Positions 3,213 to 64,000 of a stretch of 64,000 nt of DNA are shown piece by piece. How positions within the stretch are numbered: position 1 is the stretch's first letter; each line of letters begins with the position of its first letter. The position numbers and the translations under genes were made by a program. The stretch is from Haliotis rufescens (taxonomy: Eukaryota), in assembly GCF_023055435.1 (NCBI RefSeq), contig NW_025964001.1, positions 12,710,001-12,774,000 of the forward strand, given 5' to 3'. The notes beneath the pieces are model-generated. The model saw only the letters and a list, made by a program, of their open reading frames with translations. It did not search any database and was not told the origin of the DNA.

Positions 3213-6200
3213 TGATATAAACATATTCATTTCCATAAAGTGGAGGGATTGGCAAACAAGCAAATTTTGCTTATCTGAATGCCTCTCCCAAACATAATAC
3301 ATATACAAATAGCAATGTATTGAAAGTGACATGAGAAATAGCATACATTGTATAATTGACTTTAAAGATAAGTATTGTTCTGTAAGTGTTTAATTACTGG
3401 ATTATCTTCCACAACATACAGTTACATTATTATTTACATTCAGCACAACAACATCGCAGTATCATATAGCAAAGCCAACATCTCAGACAAAATCTCTAAA
3501 TCGGCAAGAAGATAGAATAAAACTGTGGACCGATTTCAAAATTTCAAGATTTGTTACTGTCGTTAAATTTAAATTTATTTACCATTTAGAATTGAATTTA
3601 AATCGTAGCCTTTTACGAAATAATACATGTTTTGCTTTACTGTACTGTTAAAGGGACACGTAAGAAAGAAATGAAGTGCATCTTCCGTATGATAGCAACA
3701 ACAACATCTCGGGCTGTCGGATATAAATCTGGCACATTTGTCGGCGTTAAGATCACTGCAGCCAAGCCTGAGACGGGAGTGTATAACCTGACAAGAATCT
3801 TGATCCATAATTTGTATCAAAGTATATACCATTCCTATCGTTGCTTTTTATAAAACTTTTAAAACTTCCTAAGCTACTGGCATTGAATTGGTGTTTTCAA
3901 TAGGTAGTGAGTTCCAAATATTAACTGTATCTGGAATAAATGATTTGGCATAAGTATTTGATTTACACTTTGTGGTTTGCAGCTGTGAGCAGTTTCTCAA
4001 ATTATAATCACTTGCATCCGACACTCTATTTGGCACTAAGGATGAGAGATAGTCCGGTACTAGATTGTTAACCATTTTATAAAAAACATTTAACTTTTGA
4101 AAATGCCTTCTTTCTTCTAATGACGTAAGATTTGTTTCTTTATAAAGTTTACCGTGACTTGTGCCACGAACAGCCCCCCCCCCCCCCCCCCCCCCCCCAA
4201 ATAGTTCTGAGTGCATCTAGATTTAGTTTTTCAAGTAGTAACGCCTGTTCTTTTGTGCAGTTGTCCCATATGTGGGAACAATAATCAAATATCGGTAATA
4301 TGAAAGATTTATACATAGTTTCCAGTGTTTTTTCTATTTAAACGATACTTGAAACTCCTAAGACAGTTAATCACTGGACTGACTTTCTTGACTAGGCTAT
4401 CGTATCTATGTGATCGTTCCACATACAATCTTCTTGAAGAGTATGTCCTAGATGTTTATGAGAATGAACTTCCTGAACAGTAGTGTTACTCATTTTCAAA
4501 ACTGGTTTTACATTTGGAAGAATCTTCCGGGAAAACTGGATAGATACTGTTTAATTAGGGTTGAAATCGACCTGCCAGTTTTCTGCCCAAGAGCATATTC
4601 TACTTAGATCGTTAATCAGACAATGTGCTGCTGTATTCGGGTCATTTACCACGACATATAGGGATGTGTCACCGGCAAACAATCTTATATTACTATCAAT
4701 ATCGTCTATAATGTCGTTTATGAAGATTAGAAACAGTAGCGGTCCTAAAACTGACCCTTGTGGAACTCCGGCCGTAACTGGTCGTAAGTCTGAACTATAC
4801 CCATTGATAACAACCCGTTGGCATCTATGTTTTAGGTAGCTTCCAAACCATCTCAATAATTTCCCTTCAATATCATAGGATTTGAGTTTATGGATAATGC
4901 CTTTGTGCCAGACTTTATCAAAGGCCTTACTAATGTCGCAAAAGACTGCTCTAATTTCTTTTCCTTTATCCAATTCTCTAGCAATAAAATCATATAAGTA
5001 AGTCAGCTGGTTAGCGGTAGAATCTCCTGGCATGAAACCTGATTGAAGATTTGTAAGCAAATTATTATCTCTTAAGTAATTAAAAACATATTTGAAAACG
5101 CATTTTTCGAATATTTTAGCCACGCAACACGTGAGAGCTATAGGTATATAATTACTACATTCATTAATATTACCTTTCTTGTAAATAGGCACAACGGAAG
5201 CTTCTTTCCAACTTACCAGAAAAGTAGACTTATCCAGGGATACATTAAACAATTTAGGCAGTGGATATGATATCGCTGAAGCACTAAATTTCAATAATCT
5301 ATTGCCGATACCGTCGGGCCCTGTTGCTTTAGTTACATTAACAGATAGGAGAACATCTTGAACTTCCTTTGTTGTTAGAATGATAGTAGAGAGCGATTTT
5401 TCTGTTTTAAGCTTAATATAAGGGAGAGTTTTATCAGGATATGTAACAGATGCCTGGTCAGAGAAATAATTGTTCATCACATTTGCAACATCTCTTGTAT
5501 CATCATATAGTACATCCCGGTAATTAATGGGAGGAAATTTTGTATTACTGGTGCCCCTTAGATATTTTTTAACAAGCCGCCACCATACTTTTTCACCGTA
5601 CGCATCATTAATTTTACTATCAATCTTGAGTACATATTTTCTCTTTGCAGTGCGAACATAGGAGATAACACGGTTTCTTATTTGACGAAATTTAGTCCAG
5701 TCAGAATCTAAGTTACGCTTTTTAGCAACCTTATGAATTCTGTTACGTTTCCTGATCAGTCGACGTATCTCACTAGTGATCCATAGTGGATCATTAGGTC
5801 TAATTGTTACACATTTGTTAGGAATATGATTATTACATACGTCAGTAATTGTCCGGGTGAAACATTCTGCCATAACGTCAACATTTCTGGATGATAACAA
5901 ATGATCCCACTTTGTCTCAGTTAAGCTATCATTATTTCTTCATTATCAGCTATGTTGTAATTATAGATTTTTCTTTTAAAATTTGCATTGCCAGGTATGT
6001 TTGCCTTAATTGTTTCGAATATAGGACAATGATCACTACATATAGGATCGGATACACCCGAACTCATCACACTGTCTGCATTAGTTACGAACAGTAAATC
6101 AATCAGAGTTCTGGAGGTAGGTGTAATCCTGGTGGGCTCAGTTATAATTTGGGTCAACCCATATATTGCTTGTAAGTGATCTATTTTGCTCTTACTTTCT

Positions 6201-17951: not shown

Positions 17952-19274
17952 TACTGAACACCAAAAGTTCCTGTGACATTGAATAAGATGTAATGCAAAG
18001 TTATGTTTTTTACCAAATCTGAAACAATTTCGGTTTGCAACAGATAAAAGACTCCTGTAAGTGTTCAAATTGTTTAATTTGCCATACTGACTTCAGAAAA
18101 TGCGTGATTTCATCAAAAAGATGAACATGCCAAAATGTCAATTTACAAATCAATAGCTATGTAACTATGGACCAGGCGTCGCACAAAGTCCAGTGGGATA
18201 TCTGTCCATATCTGCTTGAGCATGTTTCGAAGTTCCTGGAGTGTCTGTGGAACACGTGGTTGACGTCGAAGGCGCCGATCCATCTCATCCCAAAGGTGCT
18301 CGATTGGTGAGAGATCAGGGGGGCGAGCCGGCCAGGGGACGAAATTCACGTTGTTTTGTTGAAGAGAATCCTGAACAAGTCGAGCAATATGAGGCCGGGC
18401 GTTGTCATGTTGAAAGGTAATCCCTGAGCCATGACGAGGCAAAAACGGTAGAAACAGGGCCGATGATCTCGTCGCGGTAGCGCTGTCCATTGAGATTTCC
18501 CTCTACCACTATCAAACGGGTCCTCTGTCTTGCCTTGTCCTTGTCCTTGTCCTTGTAATCCCACCCCATACAATAACGCAGCCGCCCCCGAACCGATCTT
18601 ATTCCATGACACAATGATTGACGTAACGTTCACCTCGACGTGGGTACACTCGAATCCGTCCATCGCTGTGGCTGAGGTAAAACGAGACTCGTCAGTGAAT
18701 AGAACTTGTCCACACTGCATGGCCGTCCAGCGTAGAAGCTCTCTGTCAAAATGGAATGTCTGGCGGGTCTTCTGGCGACAATCCCTGCACATCTGAGGCG
18801 ACGACGTACGGTTTGTGAAGATATTCGTCGAAGGCCAGGGATGCTTCTTGTAGTCACGATTTCGTAGGTATGTTGTTCGAATCAAGTTGTCTTGTCGATT
18901 ATTGGTTACGCGTGGCCTGCCACTCCGACGATGGTCTCTGACTGCATTCGTCTGTTGCCAGTGTTGCCATAAACACCAAATGGTGTTTCTGTGGACGTTA
19001 AATTGTCTTGCAACATGACGTTGACTCGATCCTGCTTCAAGCATACCAATGGCTCGCAGACGCTCATTTTCGGACAGGCGTGGCATTTCGTAATGTTGAA
19101 TAATTGCGTAATTTTGTTGTTGAGTGGTTGTCGTCAGCACGATGCTTAACAATGCATATGGAATCCCGTTAACGCACATGTTTTTATACCCATTCTTTGG
19201 TAGTGAAATGCATAAAAGTCAACTTTTGCATCGAATGTCACGCTTTTCTGTAGCGGATGCGTTTTTGTGATTTG
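17952..19274 (-). mobile_element. Tc1 copy 2 (5' TIR lost, internal deletions)
   Basis: TA|TACTGAACACCAAAAGTTCCTGTGACA end; ORFs 18143-19179 match the copy-1 transposase. Confidence 0.93.
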
Positions 19275-20468: not shown

Positions 20469-22439
20469 GATAGATAGATAGATTGTCTTTATTTCCTCAG
20501 GTACTGAAGATACATTTTATAAGATACATTGTAGATACATGAATTAGATTATAACTAAACAAAGTAGTTACGTGTCATAGTGGAGGGGGTATGAACAAGT
20601 GTTACCACTTGTTAACGTAATGAGAGACTATTAACATAGTTTCGCCCCATATCTCAAGCTCAAGGTCTTTCATGCATTCAGTTAGTCCGCCTAAGAGGAA
20701 AGACATGATAACATCATCATCATTTGACCAAAGGTCAACAAAGGAATTCGCATCTGTGATATCAAAGATATTTTCGAACATTTCATTTCTTTCTTGCATA
20801 TTAATAGTACATGACATAAAAATGTGTTTGACTATGTCATGGACTACAGTTCCGCAATGGCATTCTCGCGATTCTATCCTAGAGCATCCTATTTTGACCA
20901 TGTTAGACAGAACATAAAACAGCTGCAATTGGGTTCAACCCACCGAAATACAAACCATTGTTATGGTTGACAATAATAAGTCTTTTCAGCTTTTCACATG
21001 CAATAGGCGAGCGTTCGAGTGTTGAGATACTGCCACTAAGGCAAGCCCCAGCATACATTACAAAATTTGTGTGTAGCAATTCTATGTTTCCACGGGAAAC
21101 ATGAGGGTCGGATACATTATATTTACAGTGCGGAAATACTATGACTGCACTTTTATTCACATTATAAACCAGACGCCATCTACACGCATAATTGTGAGCA
21201 ATATCTAGCAGGTTTTGCAGTGCTGATGGAGAGCTAATGACAATGGTTGTATCGTCTGCTAGCAGTTGACCCTGATAGTGACCCCAAGGTAGGCGGAGGC
21301 CGTAGCCAGAGCAATCAAGCTTGCAAATGAGATCATTGATATATAATGTGAAAAGCCAGGGAGATAATACACGTCCTTGACCAACACCTTGATAGATAGA
21401 AAATACATCTGAGCTGTAGCCTGCATATGTAACATATGATTGCATGGACGAGTAGGCATTACGCAAGAGACGCCATGTTTTACCAGTTATACCCATGTCA
21501 TGTAGCTTAAGGAATAAGCCATCAAGCCATTTCTTTCCGTATAGTATGCAATGTTTTCGAAGAGGCTGAAGTAGGCTGGTATATATTCATATTTGATTAT
21601 AGCATTGAACAGTGTAGTTAAATTGCCAAATAATGATCTACCTGCACGTTTAAGGTGTTTATTAGTTAGGCAGTCTGGACCAGGGAATTTTCCCATTTCA
21701 ATGACTTGACAGTACACCAAACCTCTTGGGAGGTAAAAGGATCGGATATCGGTGAATCAAGCTTTTCCACATCAGGATATTTATCGATCTTTTCAAATTA
21801 CATCAGAAGCAAAAGAGTTATCAAAACAAACAGACATTACAGGTGTAGCCCTAATCAGCAAAATACATGCCAAACGCTGAGCATATGTCCTCTGGCGTCG
21901 TTGAAGAAATCCCATTAACAGTTAATTTTGACATTTGTCCATTCTGTCTCGATAAGCGTTTAGTCACTTTCACATTTTCGTTAATGTCGACTTCAGCAGC
22001 TTTCGATATTTCACAGAGTTTATCGTCAAGACTGCGTTGTTTTGATCTGCGATGGCGTTTTCGAAATTCATGTTTAGCGTCTTTGTACTTTCTATAGTGT
22101 TCATCGTCGGCATTGCCTAAAAGTCGGGCCGGGCCTGACCAAGACGGGCCAAAGTGTTATTGGCTAATTACTTCATTATTGGCCACCATACCTACATATA
22201 ATTGATGCAACATACACACATGACATTAATGAACAATCACCAAACAAAAAAGTGCACAATAATTAAGTAATTCGGAGTAAATCACTTGAAAACCAGAAAG
22301 TGGAGCTGTGTGTAAGCGTCGCTGATCGAGGTAACATGTAAAAGAGCAATCGTTAAACGAAATAAGATTTTAAACGTATCAAATACTTCTAGCTGTCGTG
22401 ATACAAATTTCCATCTGTCGGCATAGCGTTTCTATTTAT

Positions 22440-23612
22440 AGGAACGTACTATATCTAAGTAAATACCACTTTATAATGTCACTGTTCATCGTATTTAAAG
22501 CAGACACGTTGGTTAAAGCAGACCTCTTCTCCCTATACTCTCAACAGTCACATGGCCCGGGCTGTCAAACCAACTTTAAACTCACATATGTATCTTCAAA
22601 TGGATTCACATCTATAAACTAGTATAATATCTACCTAAATACCACTTTATAGTGTCTCAGATCGCGGTATTTAAAGAAAACAAGGGGCTCAAAGTGAAGC
22701 CCTTTTCCCTCTACATTCTCAACATAGTCTCTATCAGAAGTGTTTGGCTTGTGTTGGGTTCGACTTGGCCCGGGCGGTCAAAATCTACTTTAAACACACA
22801 GATGTATCTTCAAATGTGTTTACATCTATAGATTAGTATTAAATCTACCTATATACCACTTTATAGTGTCTCAGATGGCTGTACTTAAAGAAAACAAGGG
22901 GCTCAAAGTGAAACATTTTTACTGTATTTTCTTAAGAAAATCTCTGTCTGCAGTGTTCGGTCCGACTTGGCCCGGGCGGTCAAAATCAACTTAAACCTCA
23001 CAGATATATCTTCAAATGTGTTTACATCTATCAACTAGTATAATATCTACCTAAATACCACTTTATAGTGTCTCAGATGGCTGTACTTAAAGAAAACAAG
23101 GGGCTCAAAGTGAAATATTTTTACTGTATTTTCTTAAGAAAATCTCTGTCTGAAGTGTTTGGCTTGTGTTGGGTCCGACTTGGCCCGGGCGGTCAAAATC
23201 TACTTTAAACGCACAGATGTATCTTAAAATGTGTTTACATCTATAGATTAGTATTAAATCTACCTATATACCACTTTATAGTGTCTCAGATGGCTGTACT
23301 TAAAGAAAACAAGGGGCTCAAAGTGAAACATTTTTACTGTATTTTCTTAAGAAAATCTCTGTCTGAAGTGTTCGGTCCGACTAGGCCCGGGCTGTCAAAA
23401 TCAACTTAAACCTCACAGATGTATCTTCAAATGTGTTTACATCTATAGACTATTGTTATATCTACCTAAATACCATTTTATAGTGTCTCAGATGGCGGTA
23501 TATGAAGAAAACAAGGTGCTCAAAGTGAAGCCCTTTTCCCTCTACATTCTCAACATAGTCTCTATCAGAAGTGTTTGGCTTGTGCTGGGTCCGACTAGGC
23601 CTGGGCTGTCAT
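22440..23612 (+). repeat. ~203-213-bp satellite array
   Basis: Recurrent ataccactttatagtgtctcagat / aagaaaacaaggggctcaaagtgaa / gacttggcccgggc, 5-6 units. Confidence 0.93.
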
Positions 23613-24307
23613 CAAACGTATTTACATGTATACAAAGTGAAGCACCTTTTCGCATACTCTGAACATCCACTCTCAAAGTAGTGGTTGTTTCGCCTTAGCC
23701 AAAATTCACCATAACCTTATAGATATAAACGTTGTATTTGTCATTTTAACTGTAACCTTTTGATCGAAATCCTATTCTTTTGTAAAAGAAACTAACTTAC
23801 ACGTTTAGAGGCCTCCCAATCTTAAATGCTTGGTAGAAAACGAATGACAAGGTAGACACAATTGTATGGATAACTTTATCTGTCTGCCTTGTCATCCGTC
23901 AACTTCTAAGTAATGCCTCTCAAACAAAGAGAAAACGAATGCGTTGATGTACAAATGTTTCAACTGTTAGATGAATAGTAGACGTCACACATCGTTCGAT
24001 CAGTGTAGTGGTCAGTTTACTGACCAGGTGTATTGACATTTGTCATCAGTAGGTTGTCAGTTACTGACCAGACCAGACCACACCACGTGTGTTTGTGTCT
24101 ACGTAAACATACTAATGGTGTTTTAAGATCACAGACCCCCCTCGTATGAAATTAGTCCTTTTTAATTGAAAGAAACGCGGGAAAGGATTTTTCCAAATAA
24201 TTGGATACTGACAGGTTGCGTAGACGGGGACGAAACATACAAGTTATTGGCTTCTAATTGTGTCACTATTAGTACGATGTATTTACTACAGGCCATTCCA
24301 CTTAAGA

Positions 24308-26035
24308 TTTAATACTAATCTATAGATGTAAACACATTTGAAGATAGATCTGTGTGTTTTAAGTAGATATTGACCGCCCGGGCCAAGTCGGACCCAACAC
24401 AAGCCAAACACTTCTGATAGAGACTATGTTGAGAATGTAGAGGGAAAAGGGCTTCACTTTGAGCCCCTTGTTTTCTTTACATACTGCGATCTGTGACATT
24501 ATAAAGTGGTGTATAGGTAGATATAACACTAATCTATAGATGTAAACACATTTGATGATACATCTGTGTGTTTAAAGTAGATTTTGACCGCCCGGGCAAA
24601 GTCCGTCCCAACACAAGCCAAACACTTCTGATAGAGACTATGTTGAGAATGTAGAGGGAAAAGGGCTTCACTTTGAGCCCCTTGTTTTCTTTAAATTCGA
24701 TGTACCGTGACATTATAAAGTGGTATATAGGTAGATTTAATACTAATCTATAGATGTAAACACATTTGAAGATAGATTTGTGTGTTTATAGAAGATTTTG
24801 ACAGCCCGGACCAAATCGGACCTAACACAAGCCAAAGACTTCTGATAGAGACTATGTCTAGGATGTAGAGGGAAAAGGGCTTAACTTTGAGCCCCTTGTT
24901 TTCTTTAAAGACGATGTACTGAGACATTATAAAGTGGTATATAGGTAAATATAACACTGATCTATAGATGTAAACACATTTGATGATACTTCTATGTGTT
25001 TAAAGTTGATTTTGACAGCCCGGGCCAAGTCGGACCCAACACAAGCCAAACACTTTTTATAGAGACTATGTTGAGAATCTAGAGGGGAAAGGGCTTCACT
25101 TTGAGCACCTTGTTGTCTTTAAATACAGCAGCTGAGACACTATAAAGTTGTATATAGGTAGATATAATGCTAATCTATAGATGTAAACACATTTGATGAT
25201 ACATCTGTGTGTTTAAAGTAGATTTTGACCGCCCGGGCAAAGTCCGTCCCAACACAAGCCAAACACTTCTGATAGAGACTATGTTGAGAATGTAGAGGGA
25301 AAAGGGCTTCACTTTGAGCCCCTTGTTTTCTTTAAATTCGATGTACCGTGACATTATAAAGTGGTATATAGGTAGATTTAATACTAATCTATAGATGTAA
25401 ACACATTTGAAGATAGATTTGTGTGTTTATAGAAGATTTTGACAGCCCGGACCAAATCGGACCTAACACAAGCCAAAGACTTCTGATAGAGACTATGTCT
25501 AGGATGTAGAGGGAAAAGGGCTTAACTTTGAGCCCCTTGTTTTCTTTAAAGACGATGTACTGAGACATTATAAAGTGGTATATAGGTAAATATAACACTG
25601 ATCTATAGATGTAAACACATTTGATGATACTTCTATGTGTTTAAAGTTGATTTTGACAGCCCGGGCCAAGTCGGACCCAACACAAGCCAAACACTTTTTA
25701 TAGAGACTATGTTGAGAATCTAGAGGGGAAAGGGCTTCACTTTGAGCACCTTGTTGTCTTTAAATACAGCAGCTGAGACACTATAAAGTTGTATATAGGT
25801 AGATATAATGCTAATCTATAGATTTAAAGACATTTGATGATACATTTGTGTGTTTAAAGTGCATTTTGACAGGCCGGGCCAAGTCGGACCCAACACAAGC
25901 CAAACACTTCTGATAGAGACTATGTTGAGAATGTAGAGTGAAAAAGGCTTCACTTTGAGCTCTGTGTTTTCTTTAACTACTGAAATATGAGACAATAAAG
26001 TGGTATTTAATTAGATATAATACTAGTCTTTAGAT
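24308..26035 (-). repeat. ~213-bp satellite array, inverted relative to 22440-23612 (~8 units)
   Basis: Reverse complement of the same unit; includes a 641-bp three-unit duplication (identical ORFs at 24748 and 25389). Confidence 0.93.
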
Positions 26036-27299
26036 ATAAAGAATGTTAGGAACTTTAGAAGTGCTTGGACAGTTATTAACACGTGTCGTGTCAGTCCTTT
26101 GACATTCGCGAATATCCACTTCCAGAAAACATCCTGTGTTGGTTAAACAAGAATTAGTAAAGGTTAATTAGGGATGCCCAACACATTAATTAATGAAAGA
26201 AGAGTAGTCAAAACACTGTCGTTTTCTGCCCAGGACATCACACCCCTACACGCTAAGGTCGGTGAGAAGCATTCTAATCAAAGAATACACACAGTCAAGA
26301 CACTGACTTTTCTACGAGACTCACAGTATGTAGGCATAATCATCAGTTTATTACATTGTTGAAGGTGCATTTTTATTCAAACACAATTAAATGAGCAAAA
26401 CTATACGTTTGTGGACATTTGAGATCTGCCTAGATATGGGCGTTTCGTTTTATTATTCTGCAATCCATTTTTAGTATTACCCGTTGGCCCGACCCGGCCC
26501 GACTTTTCTTGGCCCGACTTTTAGGCAATCCCTTCATCGTCTGTATTATGAGATTTTCCCGAGTCACGCCAGAGTCCGCGACATCCTCTCATTTCATTAT
26601 GGAGAGGTTTCAAGCCACCTCTTTTCCAATATGGTTTCAGGTACGAGCGATATCTGGAGCATGGTATACTGTTGTTTGATGAATCTCTGAGTGCCTGTAC
26701 GATAAAGTCGTTGTAGGAGTTGATATATTCTGCAGGAGTTAAGTAGCATGACAAATCAACGCACGTCTCTCGGAGATGGTTCTCAGTCTCATACCGGTAG
26801 AGCATCAAGTCAACTTCACTTGCTTTTTTCCGGTCAATCTTGTCACCACCATAGTGTTTACTGGAACTGATGACATTAAGATCCACAATTATAGGCAAGT
26901 GATCAGACACACTAGTGTCAATCATATGTCCAGTTACACAAGGGAGGTATTCTTTATGTACAAAAAACATAGTCAATGAGAGTTCTCGAAGATTTGTTCT
27001 TTGTTGAAAATGTATATTGAGACTGATTATCCAGAGGAATAATAGAAATGAAATTTCTTTCAGTGAGTGCTCTCTGTATATATGACGCACGTTTTCTTGT
27101 GGGTTGAAGATATTTGCGCAGATCTAAATTAAAATCCCCCAGGAGAATAGTGTCACCTTCGTGTGAATATTGATCATACATCGCCATGGTAAAGTCAAGA
27201 GCGTCTATATTTACACTATCCAAAACATTGGAAGATGGCAGATGTGTTCCAATGACATAGATCAGTTCTTCATTCGTTCTTCATTTTAGACCTAATATA

Positions 27300-30493: not shown

Positions 30494-32698
30494 TTACGAT
30501 ATACGAATGGCCATGAGATTAGGTAGGTTGAGATCAAACCATAGTGAACATAATTCAAACAGTCAGTCACAGATAGCCGTTTTTCTTTACGCCTCAAGCA
30601 ACTTATAGCCATTGAAAGACGTAACACCTTGCGGAAATAATATACTGGACAACAAAGGTTCCTTTGACATTGAATAAGATTTAATGCAAAGTTATGTTTT
30701 TTACCAAATCTGAAACAATTTCGGTTTGCAACAAATAAAAGACTCCTGTAAGTGTTCAAATGGTTTAATTTGCCATACTGACTTCAGAAAATGCGTGATT
30801 TCATAAAATAAACCCATGAACATGCCAAAATGTCAATTTACAAATCAATAGCGTGTGTGTCCACCTCTGGTTGCGATGCAAGCAACACATCTACGTCTCA
30901 TGGAATGGACCAGGCGTCGCACAAAGTCCTGTGGGATATCTGTCCATATCTGCTGGAGCATGTTTCGAAGTTCCTGGAGTGTCTGTAGAACACGTTGTTG
31001 ACGTCGAAGGCGCCGATCCATCTCCACCCACATGTGCTCGATTGGTGAGAGATCGGGGAGCGAGCCGGCCAGGGGATGACATTCACGTTGTTTTGTTGAA
31101 GAGAATCCTGAACAAGTCGAGCAATATGAGGCCGGGCGTTGTCATGTTGAAAGATAATGCCTGGGCCATGACGAAGCAAAAAGGGTAGAACAACAGGGCC
31201 GATGATCTCGTCGCGGTAGCGCTGTCCATTGAGATTTCCCTCTACCACTATCAAACGGGTCCTCTGTCTTGCTGTAATCCCACCCCATACCATAACGCTG
31301 CCGCCCCCGAACCGATTTTCTTCCTTGACACAATGATTGACGTAACGTTCACCTCGACGTCGGTACACTCGAATCCGTCCATTGCTGTGTCTGAGGTGAA
31401 ATCGAGACTCGTCAGTGAATAGAACTTGTCCACACTGCATGGCCGTCCAGCGTAGAAGCTGTCTGCACCACTGTAGACGTGCTTGACGGTGGTTCCTGTC
31501 AAAATGGGACGTCTGGCGGGTCTTCTGGCGACAATCCCTGCACATCTGAGGCGATGACGTACGGTTTGTGAAGATATTCGTCGAAGGCCAGGGATGCTTC
31601 TTGCAGTCACTGTTGCTAGCTAGAATCGATTTCGTAGGTGTGTTGTTCGAATCCAGTTGTCTTGTCGATTATTGGTTACGCGTGGCCTGCCACTCCGAGG
31701 ATGGTCTCTGACTGCATTCGTCTGTTGCCAATGTTGCCATAAACACCAATCGTCTACAAAGCAAAGAGAAAATAATTCAGGGTTTGCCATATCAGATGAT
31801 TTATTACATTGCCTACTTGAGCGTAAATATTGATGTACATGACAGTTAATTTTTATTATTTTTCATTGCAATATCCATATACATATACACAGTCACATTA
31901 TTCAGACGTGTTCCTTTAGACATTAAGATTTTAAGCAGGTAGGAAGCTGGTAGCCAGGAAACCACGAAGCCAGGAATTTGTCTCAAAGGAATGTGTCAAT
32001 ACAGTACAACATAGAAAAAATTTCTAGATCTCAGGATTGGCACTAGAAGAACGGGAGTCAGCACATTTGCGTTCTACTCCATACACACTGGGTGAAATGG
32101 CAGAAACAACCTTTCTAATCGGCATATCTAGTCCCCGCAATCGCCCAAACTGTTTTGGTAAGACACTTCTAGATCGTCAATTCTGCTTGTTTCAACAATT
32201 GAACTTCGTGTTCAACACCTTCTGACAGTAGGAATATAATGTGAAAGTGAAAGTACATGTAGAACTACACCAATCTGAACTCCATTCACCAATGAATCTG
32301 TTCGTGTTTTCGGATCCGGACGAAGAAAGGTATATTGCTGGTCCCAGCAAATGTACCACCAAATGGTATCTAAAAACTTAAGCATAATCCTTCATGCAAT
32401 CAAGGAAGGACTTTCTTTACATTCACAGAAAGTGTTTGAGACAAGGATTCTAAAGAACTCAGAGGATTTGTTTGATCTCAGAAACCTACCAAGTTCTATT
32501 ATGTCAAAACACGTGACTTTTCAACTGTATTCACCACTCGACAAACACTTCATAAGGGAGAACTTCATTCCTTGATTCGCAGGGCAGTTGTCCCTGAACG
32601 AAGTGATCACAGACATAGTTAATTACTATCTTCAAAGGTTCGTGAAAATTTGTCAAAATTGAAAGCCAGTGTCGTCTAAAGTATATGAGAAAACAATA
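30494..32698 (+). repeat. Right copy of long direct duplication (partner 17813-20468)
   Basis: Same start and end sequences; lacks the segment equivalent to ~18980-19388. Confidence 0.92.
30643..31749 (-). mobile_element. Tc1 copy 3 (duplicate of copy 2, 5' deleted)
   Basis: ORF 30898-31545 VLFTDESRF, FQHDNARPH; same insertion site as copy 2. Confidence 0.93.
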
Positions 32699-60009: not shown

Positions 60010-61863
60010 TCAGCTTGTTATTTTCTGTCAAATTATTACATATTATACTACGTTTGTCTTGTAGTTCAGAAGGTGAACGTACGACTGTATTATAAGATGG
60101 CATGCACCAGTGCTCAATCTATTGTTCTACCAAAGTCGCCACGATGAAAAATTCTTTCTGCATCTTTTTTTGGCCAATATTGCATGCATGCATATGTAAT
60201 CGAATGATGATGTTCCCCGTGATTTGAAGTTTTACTTCTTTCGACTAAATAAATAAGGCGAAGCACTTGGTTTGATTCCCAACATTGGTACACGCACTTG
60301 TACGCAGGCCTCTTACAATGATTTGTCGCCTTTTGGTTTAATATTTGTTTGGTTCAAATCACGATAATGCGGCAACGCGACAGCGCGAAAATGCGAAAAA
60401 TGGCCAACATGTCGCATTGTCGAGGTTTGGTTATTTTTTACACTCTTTGCTTGTTTTTGTAAGGGATTCCATAGTAAGGGGATACAAGTGCTGATTTGAT
60501 CTACTTACGTCCATATAATGTATCACAGGAAATAATAATTTACTAAACACCATGGGTAACTGTCATTTAAATGATTGTAACTTGATATAGAGAGGATATG
60601 AGTAGTATAGAACGGGTCCGCAGGAACCTTTTTTGGTTGAGGGAGGTTGAGTGAAAATAGGGAAGGTGATTGGTTGATCCAAGTCACGTGATCGGATAGG
60701 ATGACTCATGCATCAACAGCACGTCACAGGTGAGGGGGAATGAAAGGTGTGTGTTTATAAAGACAGAAAAGAATTCATAAGAAAACAAAAGTAAAAGGTT
60801 ATGAATAGGGCTAAATGTATAGCGTGCTGCCTTGAATAGACAGACCGTACCCGTCAGCCCAGTTTGAATTGAGCGCGCTTGACAACTGACGTGGCCTCGT
60901 CGTTTAACCCGCGCTCGCGAGAGCGTGCGATCTGGTTTGATGAATGCAGGGTGTGTCTTGAAAGTACGACCATACCCCAATAGAGACGGGTTATGTCAAC
61001 ACGATATACACCGTGCAATGTAGGGAAAAAAATGTACGGATCAAATTCATCTTGTACGGTCTACACGTTGTACACCATGAACGTTAGACAACCTGTATGG
61101 AAAAAAATACATAGAGATAAAATAGATAAGACTACACAATCAGCAAGCTAGCAGTGTCGTTTAATTACATTTAGCGCGCAAGAACGAGGTAGTCACGTCA
61201 CCCTGCATTGACTATAACGCTGAAGGCAGCCGGATTTCGAATCACCCCGCGCTGCGTACTATTGTGAACCATTTGTATAGAGGGCGTTCACTTATTCAAC
61301 CCTGTCCCGACTTGCATAGTTGATGTTTCAACGCTAGCGTTTCCATTTAACGCCATGACAAATAAACCGTACGGTTTGAGTTTTAACCGTGTAACATGAT
61401 GTGCACAGTTTTTACTTCAGAACGTGCTATTTTGACAATAGATAGTTAGAACCATGTCTATGTTCAATAGAAAACTGATGAGTACACGTAGCAGTGTCAC
61501 GGCACGAAGCTAGGTTTGTTGGGAAAGTGATGGAAGCAATCAATAAGACATTTCATGTTTACAATACTCACCCTTAATCGGATAGGATGACTTTACTATG
61601 TCTATACTAGCCTAGACTATACTACTAAAATTGAGGTCAGGCACCGAGATAGCCAACGCGCAGGTGTGTACATAATAATAATATCTGAATTGCTCAATGT
61701 TCAACATCGTTTCCCGTGTGACCGTTCAGACAGATACACAGGTGCATCTATATGGGTATATGGGTGGTCCGTATCCCAAGCTGTCAGTCATGCTGACAGT
61801 GAGCTATACAGGTGCGTTGAATGGCCAGTTACTATATGGCAATCATTCATCATAGAAACATCC

Positions 61864-61903
61864 TATATAAACACCACCCCGAATATCAGAGCGTCATTTC
61901 AGT
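61864..61903 (+). promoter_or_regulatory. TATA box + initiator of the zinc-finger/PolB gene
   Basis: TATATAAA at 61864-61871; TCATTTCAGTT ~30 nt downstream; ATG at 61926 in AACATGG context. Confidence 0.7.
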
Positions 61904-61925: not shown

Positions 61926-64000
61926 ATGGATTCATCAAACGCGTAAGTGTATTTCTTAATGACTTATTTCGTTTATATTAAATGAGAATACTACACAGCT
62001 TACACATGTTTCAGGCTGAGTGAAAAGGTATGTGTTAGTAAAAGTGATTATGAGTAACTCTCATTACCAACTTTATGAAGAAAACAATGTTGTATCTCTA
62101 GCGAGAATTAAAAGGAATGTTTTGTCTTTCAGACCATTCACCTGTCCACAGTGCGGGAAAGGTTTTAATAGAAAAGATAACCTTTCCCGTCATATGCGAT
62201 CTGTTCACCAGGGTGAACGTTACGCGTGCGAGAAATGCTCTAAAAGTTTTTCTTCCAAACAAAAACTAAACCAGCACAAGTGCGCTGCCTGCTCGCAACA
62301 ACGCCTATCGGAATACCGTTGTAGCGTAAGTTTATTTTCGTGAATGTAATCATCATTAGATTTAAGGGAATATGTGTGGGACTTTTATTTATCTTCCTAT
62401 GCTTTTTAAAAGGTAATTTTCATTTAAACACATGTGGTTCATTCTATGTTGAAAACAAGGACATCATGCTATGTTAGTACGAGTATCGTTACTAAACTCG
62501 TACAGTCCCTTTAAGAACACTGCTTTATTTCTACATACAGAAATGCCCCGAGGTGTTCCCCTCTCCCCGTGACTTGGCCGTGCATTTTCGACGGTGTCAT
62601 TCTAGCGGTAAGTTGAATGTTCATAATGCCATCTGAAGTAAAAGTGTGAAAGACATGGGTTATTAACTGTATTGAAAATATCACATTCGTGACTTCGAGC
62701 TTATCATTTCACTCGAATAAAATATGCTCAGATGCTATAGATTGAACATATCTTTTCTCCACAGGCGCAACACAGACGTCGCGTGATGACGCACGGCCGT
62801 CTACCTCCAGTGCAGTACCGATTAGTGGGGGTGAGTTCTATTTTGTATCTATCTATCTAATATCTATCACTTCATTCATCCATGTACGAGTGTTAGTATT
62901 AACGAGGTTCATACCACATAGGGTTTCCATATATGTGTGTCGTGTGTTTGTATATAGATAGCATTGACTGGGATGTTTTCAGTTAACTGTTTTGTATTTC
63001 AGGGACAACCTCTACAAACCAGCCTACACCGTCCACCTCCTCGGGGCAGGTTGCAAGGGCGGGAAACTGTCGTGCTAGTGGAGGTAGATATTGAATAGTA
63101 TTTTATAAGCTATGGATTTTAGGTAGCCCTGAATTATATGTATTAGTTCAATCCGTCATGGTGTTCATATGTATTCGCTTTGGAAGTATTATATAGCACG
63201 TGTAAGTCATGATATTTATTTGAAGCATAAGAGCTCGTAGTGATTGAGTGAGTGAACGATGCTGTTATAGGCGAGCACAGTATTCATACATTGAATTTTA
63301 TTCTATCACCAGCTCCCTCGTGTTCCCGCATCGCAGCATCGGATGGTTGTACTACCTGCCGGACGTGTCATAGGCGTTTCGAGGATCGGTTGTCTCTCTA
63401 CCGTCATCAGATGATAGAGGGACACCGTGTCCTACCATCGCAGTCCGGCGGGAGTATGGATACCGATGCTGTTGGTAGTGAGCTCCAACCACGCCCATGG
63501 GGAGAAGGTCCCGCCCCGTGGGTAGAGGAGAGCACTGGCAAGGTGACGGAGCCCGGACTCCAGGAAGCCTATGACCTGGACGCTCCCTACATCCTCGCGC
63601 GGGACCAACCCGGGGAGGTGTTTTCGACATTCAACCTCCCCGTCAGCAACAACTTTTCGATAGGTGAGTTGATGGAACGCGCTAGGGGTATCTATCAATC
63701 ATTAAGTTATAGTTTTAGGTTCAATCTAGCGTTCGGTGTCATCCTGCGTCACGTGGAGACGGGACGCTATCGCTATTTCCATCCTTACGCTGTCGATCCG
63801 CTCTTTACTAGTCCTCTCTATATCACCGAGCTGAGGGATCTCGAACGGTTGCGTCAGAGACTGGAAAGCTTAGATGTGATGTCTTATCTATTGAAACAAC
63901 GCCCCGATACCAAATGGAAACCCGTTTTGATCACGAATATACAGTTTTACGCGTACAGAATGAATTTTCCTTTAGGCCATCCCCCTGTTGCTCTCCCCGA
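61926..64000 (+). CDS. Multi-exon C2H2 zinc-finger protein fused to probable Polinton protein-primed DNA polymerase B N-terminal region (partial, >370 aa)
   Basis: join(61926..61942,62133..62325,62541..62607,62765..62830,63003..63083,63313..>64000); all introns GT-AG and phase-consistent. Fingers: CPQC..H..H, CEKC..H.C, CS|KC..H..H, CRTC..H..H. Last exon FRFNLAFGVILRHVETGRYRYF..RPDTKWKPVLITNIQFY..FPLG..LP is open to the window end. Confidence 0.85.

Follow-up and report, generated by a model that had tools for sequence, protein, structure and literature searches.

A spliced zinc-finger leader of an abalone Polinton DNA polymerase that likely recognises a motif in the ends of its own element

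Analysis of a 64,000-nucleotide stretch of abalone DNA reveals a Polinton whose protein-primed DNA polymerase (pPolB) is expressed from spliced transcripts with a leader of C2H2 zinc fingers, and the fingers of this leader vary together with a short motif in the terminal inverted repeats (TIRs) of the element. On the evidence of these sequences, the fingers are likely a self-encoded, swappable end-recognition module, which would let the polymerase find the place where copying starts. We know of no demonstration so far of how Polintons recognise their ends for the start of protein-primed replication, and the match between fingers and motif would provide a concrete answer to this question. It is this match that is new here; the element itself is of a known kind, a Polinton. 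The stretch, called the window hereafter, comprises positions 12710001-12774000 of contig C223, and coordinates beyond 64000 continue its numbering.

The element that hosts pPolB is a complete Polinton of 17,192 bp (60601-77792), and its left TIR (Table 1) differs from the right one by 10 mismatches and 3 gap events. Exact 6-bp duplications flank three of the four full-length copies examined, the fourth (C357) being blurred at the boundary used. The original prediction had placed a probable Polinton pPolB at the window edge, and the DNA to the right agrees with it. A protein-primed family B polymerase is found there (DNA_pol_B_2, E 8.4e-7, above cut-off), and the opposite arm encodes, on the minus strand, PC4, integrase, probable minor capsid, major capsid, protease and ATPase proteins. 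The integrase matches rve (E 1.5e-9) and Chromo, a chromodomain (E 4.1e-8), and the adenain-like cysteine protease matches the structure of the pS273R protease (E 7.6e-9). The frame of the double jelly-roll major capsid gave no match in a Pfam search; its Atlas score is 0.98 to clusters in which 15-30% of the members have PF21738. Walker motifs are seen in the A32-like ATPase, which is homologous to the ATPase of related elements and whose match to Pox_A32 (E 0.028) lies below cut-off. The probable minor capsid is a 145-codon ORF between integrase and major capsid, without a match in the family search and with a homolog in locus L114. Among the Polinton genes that had been named as a check to be sought rightward, rve, protease and capsid were matched, with Pox_A32 sub-threshold, and the picture of an intact-looking virus-like element is supported by the TIRs, the target duplication and the integrase, protease, ATPase and capsid genes. 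Apart from pPolB, the core genes are single open frames. One copy on another contig is 99.8% identical to the window element, which indicates a young family, although the frames of some copies are broken. The element belongs to Polinton/Maverick and is known here from integrated copies and transcript-like contigs. Among named proteins, those of Haliotis rufescens (96% and 68%) and of H. cracherodii come closest, and a scan of viral contigs returned no relative. Two PC4 (single-stranded DNA-binding) domains are present in one protein of the element (75971-76486, minus strand).

The pPolB gene consists of five small exons and a long one (Table 1), at the positions and with the phase-compatible introns that had been proposed from the window. 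The introns measure 190, 215, 157, 172 and 229 nt, all of them begin with GT and end with AG, and their phases are 2, 0, 1, 1 and 1. The spliced frame has no stop and the whole protein is about 1644 aa in length. The TATA box and the Inr-like element of the original prediction are both present, the promoter itself remaining a predicted one, and one transcript-like contig extends upstream of the TATA box.

Table 1. Features of the pPolB gene and of the left end of the Polinton, in window coordinates
Feature	Position	Strand	Basis or remark
Left target-site duplication, 6 bp	60595..60600	.	repeated past the right end of the element
Left TIR, tip AGTAGT	60601..61578, 978 bp	.	partner 76800-77792, 993 bp
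Tandem motif GTTGAG x2 inside TIR	60636..60651	+	predicted site of fingers 2 and 1
TATA box TATATAA; Inr-like TCATTT	61864-61870; 61894-61899	+	predicted promoter; hardly any variation between copies
Coding exon 1 (start codon)	61926..61942, 17 nt	+	open spliced frame; junction in contigs
Exon 2: fingers 1, 2 and first Cys of finger 3	62133..62325, 193 nt	+	zf-C2H2 E 2.9e-12
Exon 3: remainder of finger 3	62541..62607, 67 nt	+	junction 2 in 4/4 runs
Exon 4: Ser/Thr-rich linker	62765..62830, 66 nt	+	spliced frame, contigs
Exon 5: Ser/Thr-rich linker	63003..63083, 81 nt	+	spliced frame, contigs
Long exon 6	63313..67823 (window part to 64000)	+	1502 codons
Finger 4, inside long exon	63357..63425	+	
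Terminal-protein domain, model residues 101-216	63615..63962	+	fold match

Splicing was examined with assembled contigs from four public runs (presumed RNA) of four studies, mapped on 61600-68200. All five GT-AG introns are skipped in public contigs of these presumed-RNA runs, which answers the earlier call for reads across the five junctions. Junction 2 is skipped in every run; junctions 3 and 5 are exact in three of the four runs and junction 4 in two, and for each of these three junctions one further run has a shifted variant. Junction 1 is skipped in run X3, and matching loose ends are present in run X1. A contig of 1839 nt links exons 3-5 to the long exon and reaches 64890, and no single contig in the four runs spans from exon 1 to the polymerase. 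Intron-retaining contigs are also present in the presumed-RNA runs. Comparison of 11 full-leader copies reveals that the splice dinucleotides are unchanged at 110 of 110 positions (four partial or degraded copies being left out of the count) and that 25 of 33 changes in intron length would shift a reading frame, not being divisible by three, whereas only 3 of the 11 copies have a leader exon with a change that breaks the frame. As a weak control, none of 20,000 random GT-AG chains stayed open. The open frame, the kept splice dinucleotides, the non-triplet intron changes and the junctions in contigs together place the exon chain above chance, and the removal of five introns from pPolB transcripts is real. 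Database gene models of two sister copies contain the same five introns, or four of them (the first three and the last, at the same position and phase). Introners occur in dinoflagellate elements; the introns here are unrelated to each other, and an introner origin was rejected as no intron pair scored above the maximum of its shuffles. Exons 4 and 5 were also considered as tandem duplicates and this was dismissed, their similarity not exceeding that of shuffles.

The order of domains in pPolB is three fingers, a Ser/Thr-rich linker, finger 4, terminal protein, vOTU, a C2HC finger, exonuclease and polymerase. Long exon 6 encodes finger 4 and everything after it, including, after the exonuclease, a VSR-like insert inside the polymerase, and the motifs of exonuclease, polymerase and VSR-like insert could be located in the sequence. 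The original prediction of four C2H2 fingers and a linker holds for the number of fingers, but the linker precedes finger 4, which sits in the long exon. The fifth finger, an invariant C2HC, follows the vOTU domain past the window edge. A structure model built from 51 aligned rows reached a pLDDT of 82.5, whereas the single-sequence fold was poor (pLDDT 39). In this model, residues 226-361 match OTU domains (Z 9.7, rmsd 3.3, 122 aligned) and residues 101-216 match the little-finger domains of Y-family polymerases with a middling score (Z 5.1, rmsd 3.0, 85 aligned), the latter match supporting the terminal-protein domain suspected earlier. The top viral fold match is a protein of Drosophila-associated adintovirus 2 (UniProt A0A7D4VFN9), named C2H2-type. 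The catalytic Cys of the vOTU is present in 51/51 rows and the His in 50/51. The predicted priming Thr (63909-63911) lies in the loop before the last strand, a position occupied by Ser or Thr in 51/51 and 31/31 rows. The same folds, OTU and Y-family little finger, have been reported for the vOTU and terminal-protein domains of Polinton/adintovirus pPolB (bioRxiv 10.1101/2024.03.18.585575), and section 6 of that work places the priming residue at this loop position. The two proteins have in common the little-finger-like terminal protein, the OTU domain with its Cys and His, and a linking residue, Thr here, placed after helix 2 and before strand 4. However, the text of that preprint mentions zinc or intron 0 times, while a finger leader and introns are present in the abalone protein.

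Fingers 2 and 1 are predicted to recognise a six-base motif which occurs twice, 36-51 nt from the TIR end. In 17 of 17 scorable copies, which are kin and represent two independent switches of finger 1 here in addition to one in a distant clade, residue -1 of finger 1 tracks the base at the 3' end of the motif. These copies, which carry the block in the left TIR, come from a set of 20 leader-bearing loci, two of which are without the block within 2.6 kb. Arg at -1 is found with GAG in seven copies of both leader types (one of them typed by DNA identity), Ser with GAT in nine and Asp with GAC in one, and Asn3 and Arg6 of finger 1 are constant alongside the constant GA. The pairings Arg/GAG, Ser/GAT and Asp/GAC are those of the C2H2 recognition code. 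Finger 2, whose triplet lies 5' of that of finger 1, has Ser at -1 with GTT and Arg with GTG, the latter having been predicted beforehand; in copy C605 its Thr goes with GTA, which is off the textbook code. Both the 3'-to-5' reading of C2H2 fingers with Arg for G and the exceptions to one-to-one codes are described in the part of PMC4330361 consulted. The right TIRs carry the same motif in all four copies checked.

Agreement of fingers and motif is also found in the distant locus L112, where the six bases that its two helices are predicted to read occur four times in tandem, 36-75 nt from the end. The motif matches the prediction at 6/6 bases, and at least two tandem predicted copies occurred in 0 of 20,000 shuffles. 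For L123 five of the six bases fit, and for L121 finger 1 fits and finger 2 misfits; in both, a change of residue 6 from Arg to Thr goes with a change of base from G to T. The tandem block is absent from L116, L066, L100, L114 and L117 have no clear tandem finger-motif match, and the remaining relative loci are without a recognisable element end.

Comparison of the copies reveals that one right arm is common to all of them (96-100% identity) and that the polymerase is of two types, about 66-89% identical in the long exon and with leaders that cannot be aligned. Two chimeric copies, L133 (C445:5.10M) and L135 (C588), combine the window-type spliced leader with the second polymerase type, and the switch point lies between 63415 and 63425, which is the end of finger 4. 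Finger 1 has two forms among the copies, with synonymous differences at about 11 of 17.5 sites and 2-7% divergence in the flanking intron. Positive selection was considered as the source of these forms and rejected, because near-saturated synonymous sites beside so little-diverged an intron point to recombination. Short non-autonomous elements of 3-7 kb (L146-L153, on contigs C512, C589, C605, C614, C57, C445, C201 and C334) carry Polinton TIRs of the GAG or GAT form, but their gene is a different one, in which another A32-like ATPase is fused to a C2H2 finger and a proline-rich stretch. These elements seem to be satellites of the helper Polinton. An RRDVMLR finger near the TIRs of short derivatives was tried as a polymerase leader and discarded, since it belongs to this different ATPase gene.

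Fingers are widespread among the relatives of this polymerase. At least one finger precedes the terminal protein in 25 of 30 homologs, and at least two are present in 56 of the 63 representatives with room for a leader, out of 115 scorable among the best 150 taken. A profile search with pPolB retrieved 3154 clusters at E 1e-10, and at least two fingers lie in the open frame of the terminal protein in 25 of the 27 scorable metagenome loci (of 80). Loci L051 and L114, which are genomic elements with capsid and integrase genes, have fingers and polymerase in one unbroken frame. The finger array is probably old in this pPolB clade. In a quick midpoint-rooted tree the abalone polymerases nest among finger-bearing lineages with such intron-free frames, which favours intron gain, and the internal introns were probably acquired in the abalone lineage. 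When 27 related loci were scanned for splice acceptors ahead of finger 1, the result was non-discriminating (7 sense versus 6 reverse); in 12 of the 27 no Met precedes this finger.

Several related groups deserve mention for the region before the terminal protein. A freshwater sub-clade (L068-L070, L075-L083, L089, L096 and L104) is fingerless before this domain and has the integrase directly downstream, which indicates that some relatives do without the leader. Two unrelated lineages (L105:950-1415 and L107:1220-1550) have intron-like GT..AG pieces upstream of the terminal protein, and in L105 two phase-1 pieces, recognised by eye, leave an open linker; these pieces are a hint of possible independent intron gains in the same region. 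In the clade of L112, L113, L116, L121-L123, L125 and L129, the finger frame lacks a Met and starts right after a conserved AG, so that an upstream exon would be needed, and the finger helices vary widely between near-identical polymerases.

A scheme which joins these observations may be proposed as follows. The promoter just inside the left TIR would give rise to a host-spliced mRNA, and fingers 2 and 1 of the resulting protein are predicted to bind the six-base motif, twice near each end. The bound fingers would place the conserved Thr of the terminal protein at the end, and synthesis would be primed from it. The vOTU would cut behind the terminal protein, so that the 5'-bound fragment would retain the finger leader and the genome ends would keep their fingers. 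Recombination between copies would swap single fingers, the leader as a whole and the body of the polymerase, matched finger-motif pairs being those that persist. Taken as a whole, this combination of spliced leader, finger-motif recognition, Thr priming and modular exchange is the best explanation and a probable one in our judgement. We lean slightly towards a wider version of it, in which a large clade of animal Polintons would encode a programmable reader of their own origins, namely a spliced C2H2 array attached to the terminal protein and directed at the tandem motif of the TIR; lock-and-key swaps would split a family into replication-specificity groups within one genome, and satellites would choose their helper by TIR type.

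It could be argued that the fingers bind the TIR motif for another step, such as guiding the integrase or the packaging ATPase or repressing the TIR promoter. The covariation is silent on which step uses the binding, the motif is present at both ends, and a shared end specificity or adapter for pPolB and integrase is suggested in the portion of preprint 10.64898/2026.10.13.758929 considered here. However, the fingers form one protein with the priming domain and move together with it, and copies with different motifs have integrase, ATPase and capsids that are 96-100% identical, which argues that these proteins carry no end specificity themselves; we consider a role in another step unlikely. 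Hitchhiking, where the left arm would descend as one unit from a small number of ancestral haplotypes and the fingers would bind DNA or chromatin without sequence choice, is quite unlikely in our view. It is favoured by the distance of merely 1.5 kb between motif and exon 2, by the few independent haplotypes and by the several metagenome loci without a clear finger-motif match. However, the TIR tip and exon 2 are the only places where identity between the two main types drops to 82-88%; the intervening DNA is mostly 92-100% identical and has been homogenised to 95-99% near the gene, with both ends still divergent, and in non-autonomous relatives the TIR tip and motif block recombine freely. 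Linkage this loose is a poor explanation, and it would leave unexplained that each base is the one predicted by the code, for all three states and again in a distant clade.

The leader could also be a recent capture, with the spliced 5' end of a host zinc-finger gene placed before the polymerase. The introns and promoter are of host type and one copy has a database model with the name zinc finger protein 567-like, but the fingers are clade-wide and often intron-free, and no close host donor was found for exon 2, the best non-element match having 54% amino acid identity. Recent capture is therefore very improbable, and the host-derived DNA-binding leader of the original prediction is not upheld; an ancient host origin of the fingers may be envisaged. 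We retain end recognition by the polymerase's own fingers as the preferred reading.

In adenovirus, protein priming takes place at the ITR ends and is aided by the host proteins NFI and Oct-1, which bind specific sequences some tens of bases inward. The adenovirus E2B mRNAs also have short upstream exons spliced to the terminal-protein and polymerase frames. The predicted reader of the abalone Polinton would have a role similar to that of NFI and Oct-1 and would differ in being element-encoded, fused to the terminal protein and exchangeable. Intact vertebrate and nematode Mavericks, as described in the parts of PMC8097293 and bioRxiv 10.1101/2022.07.12.499685 considered, have TIRs, 6-bp duplications, two modules and core genes in common with this element; in contrast, their core genes are reported to be intronless, with introns only in cargo, whereas pPolB has five here. 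The transcript-like evidence corrects this picture of intronless Polinton core genes, and the splicing supports nuclear, host-spliced expression. Mollusc pPolB, including an aligned Haliotis one, is covered by bioRxiv 10.1101/2023.08.22.554363, and the VSR insert and the swap of polymerases on one backbone are shared with it. However, finger leader and splicing are absent from the portion of its main text consulted, and the exchange seen here also reaches the level of leader and single finger.

Automatic Haliotis models (XP_048238897.1, XP_046346617.2 and XP_071085581.1) already join finger exons to the polymerase, but they are labelled uncharacterized or zinc finger protein, without a link to the TIR. 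The adintovirus 'Oncoid' and 'Ziftr' ORFs, in the accessible parts of PMC8502044, bioRxiv 10.1101/697771 and bioRxiv 10.1101/2024.03.25.586562, are paired-CXXC or zinc-finger frames, Oncoids typically lying upstream of PolB, and are described as separate genes, unlike the spliced leader found here. It is possible that some of them are unrecognised 5' exons of PolB. The finger leader and its TIR match are unmentioned in the sections of PMC11131425, PMC12721341, PMC8363768, PMC8502044, PMC5803895 and PMC6431247 that were covered. The openly accessible main texts searched contained no finger leader, spliced animal pPolB or finger-TIR covariation.

These findings imply that ORF-based annotation truncates such polymerases, and their 5' exons may pass as separate or host zinc-finger genes. 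If the match proves general, the specificity of C2H2 fingers could be learned from a natural training set, the finger/TIR motif pairs of many elements, and, if the proposed reading is true, a natural experiment on the zinc-finger code would be recorded in thousands of elements. The window also holds other mobile-element remains, namely two reverse-transcriptase frames, one DDE_3 transposase frame and one HTH frame (4551-5939, 20903-21586, 30898-31668 and 18346-19218), and a tandem array is present near 22550-26500.
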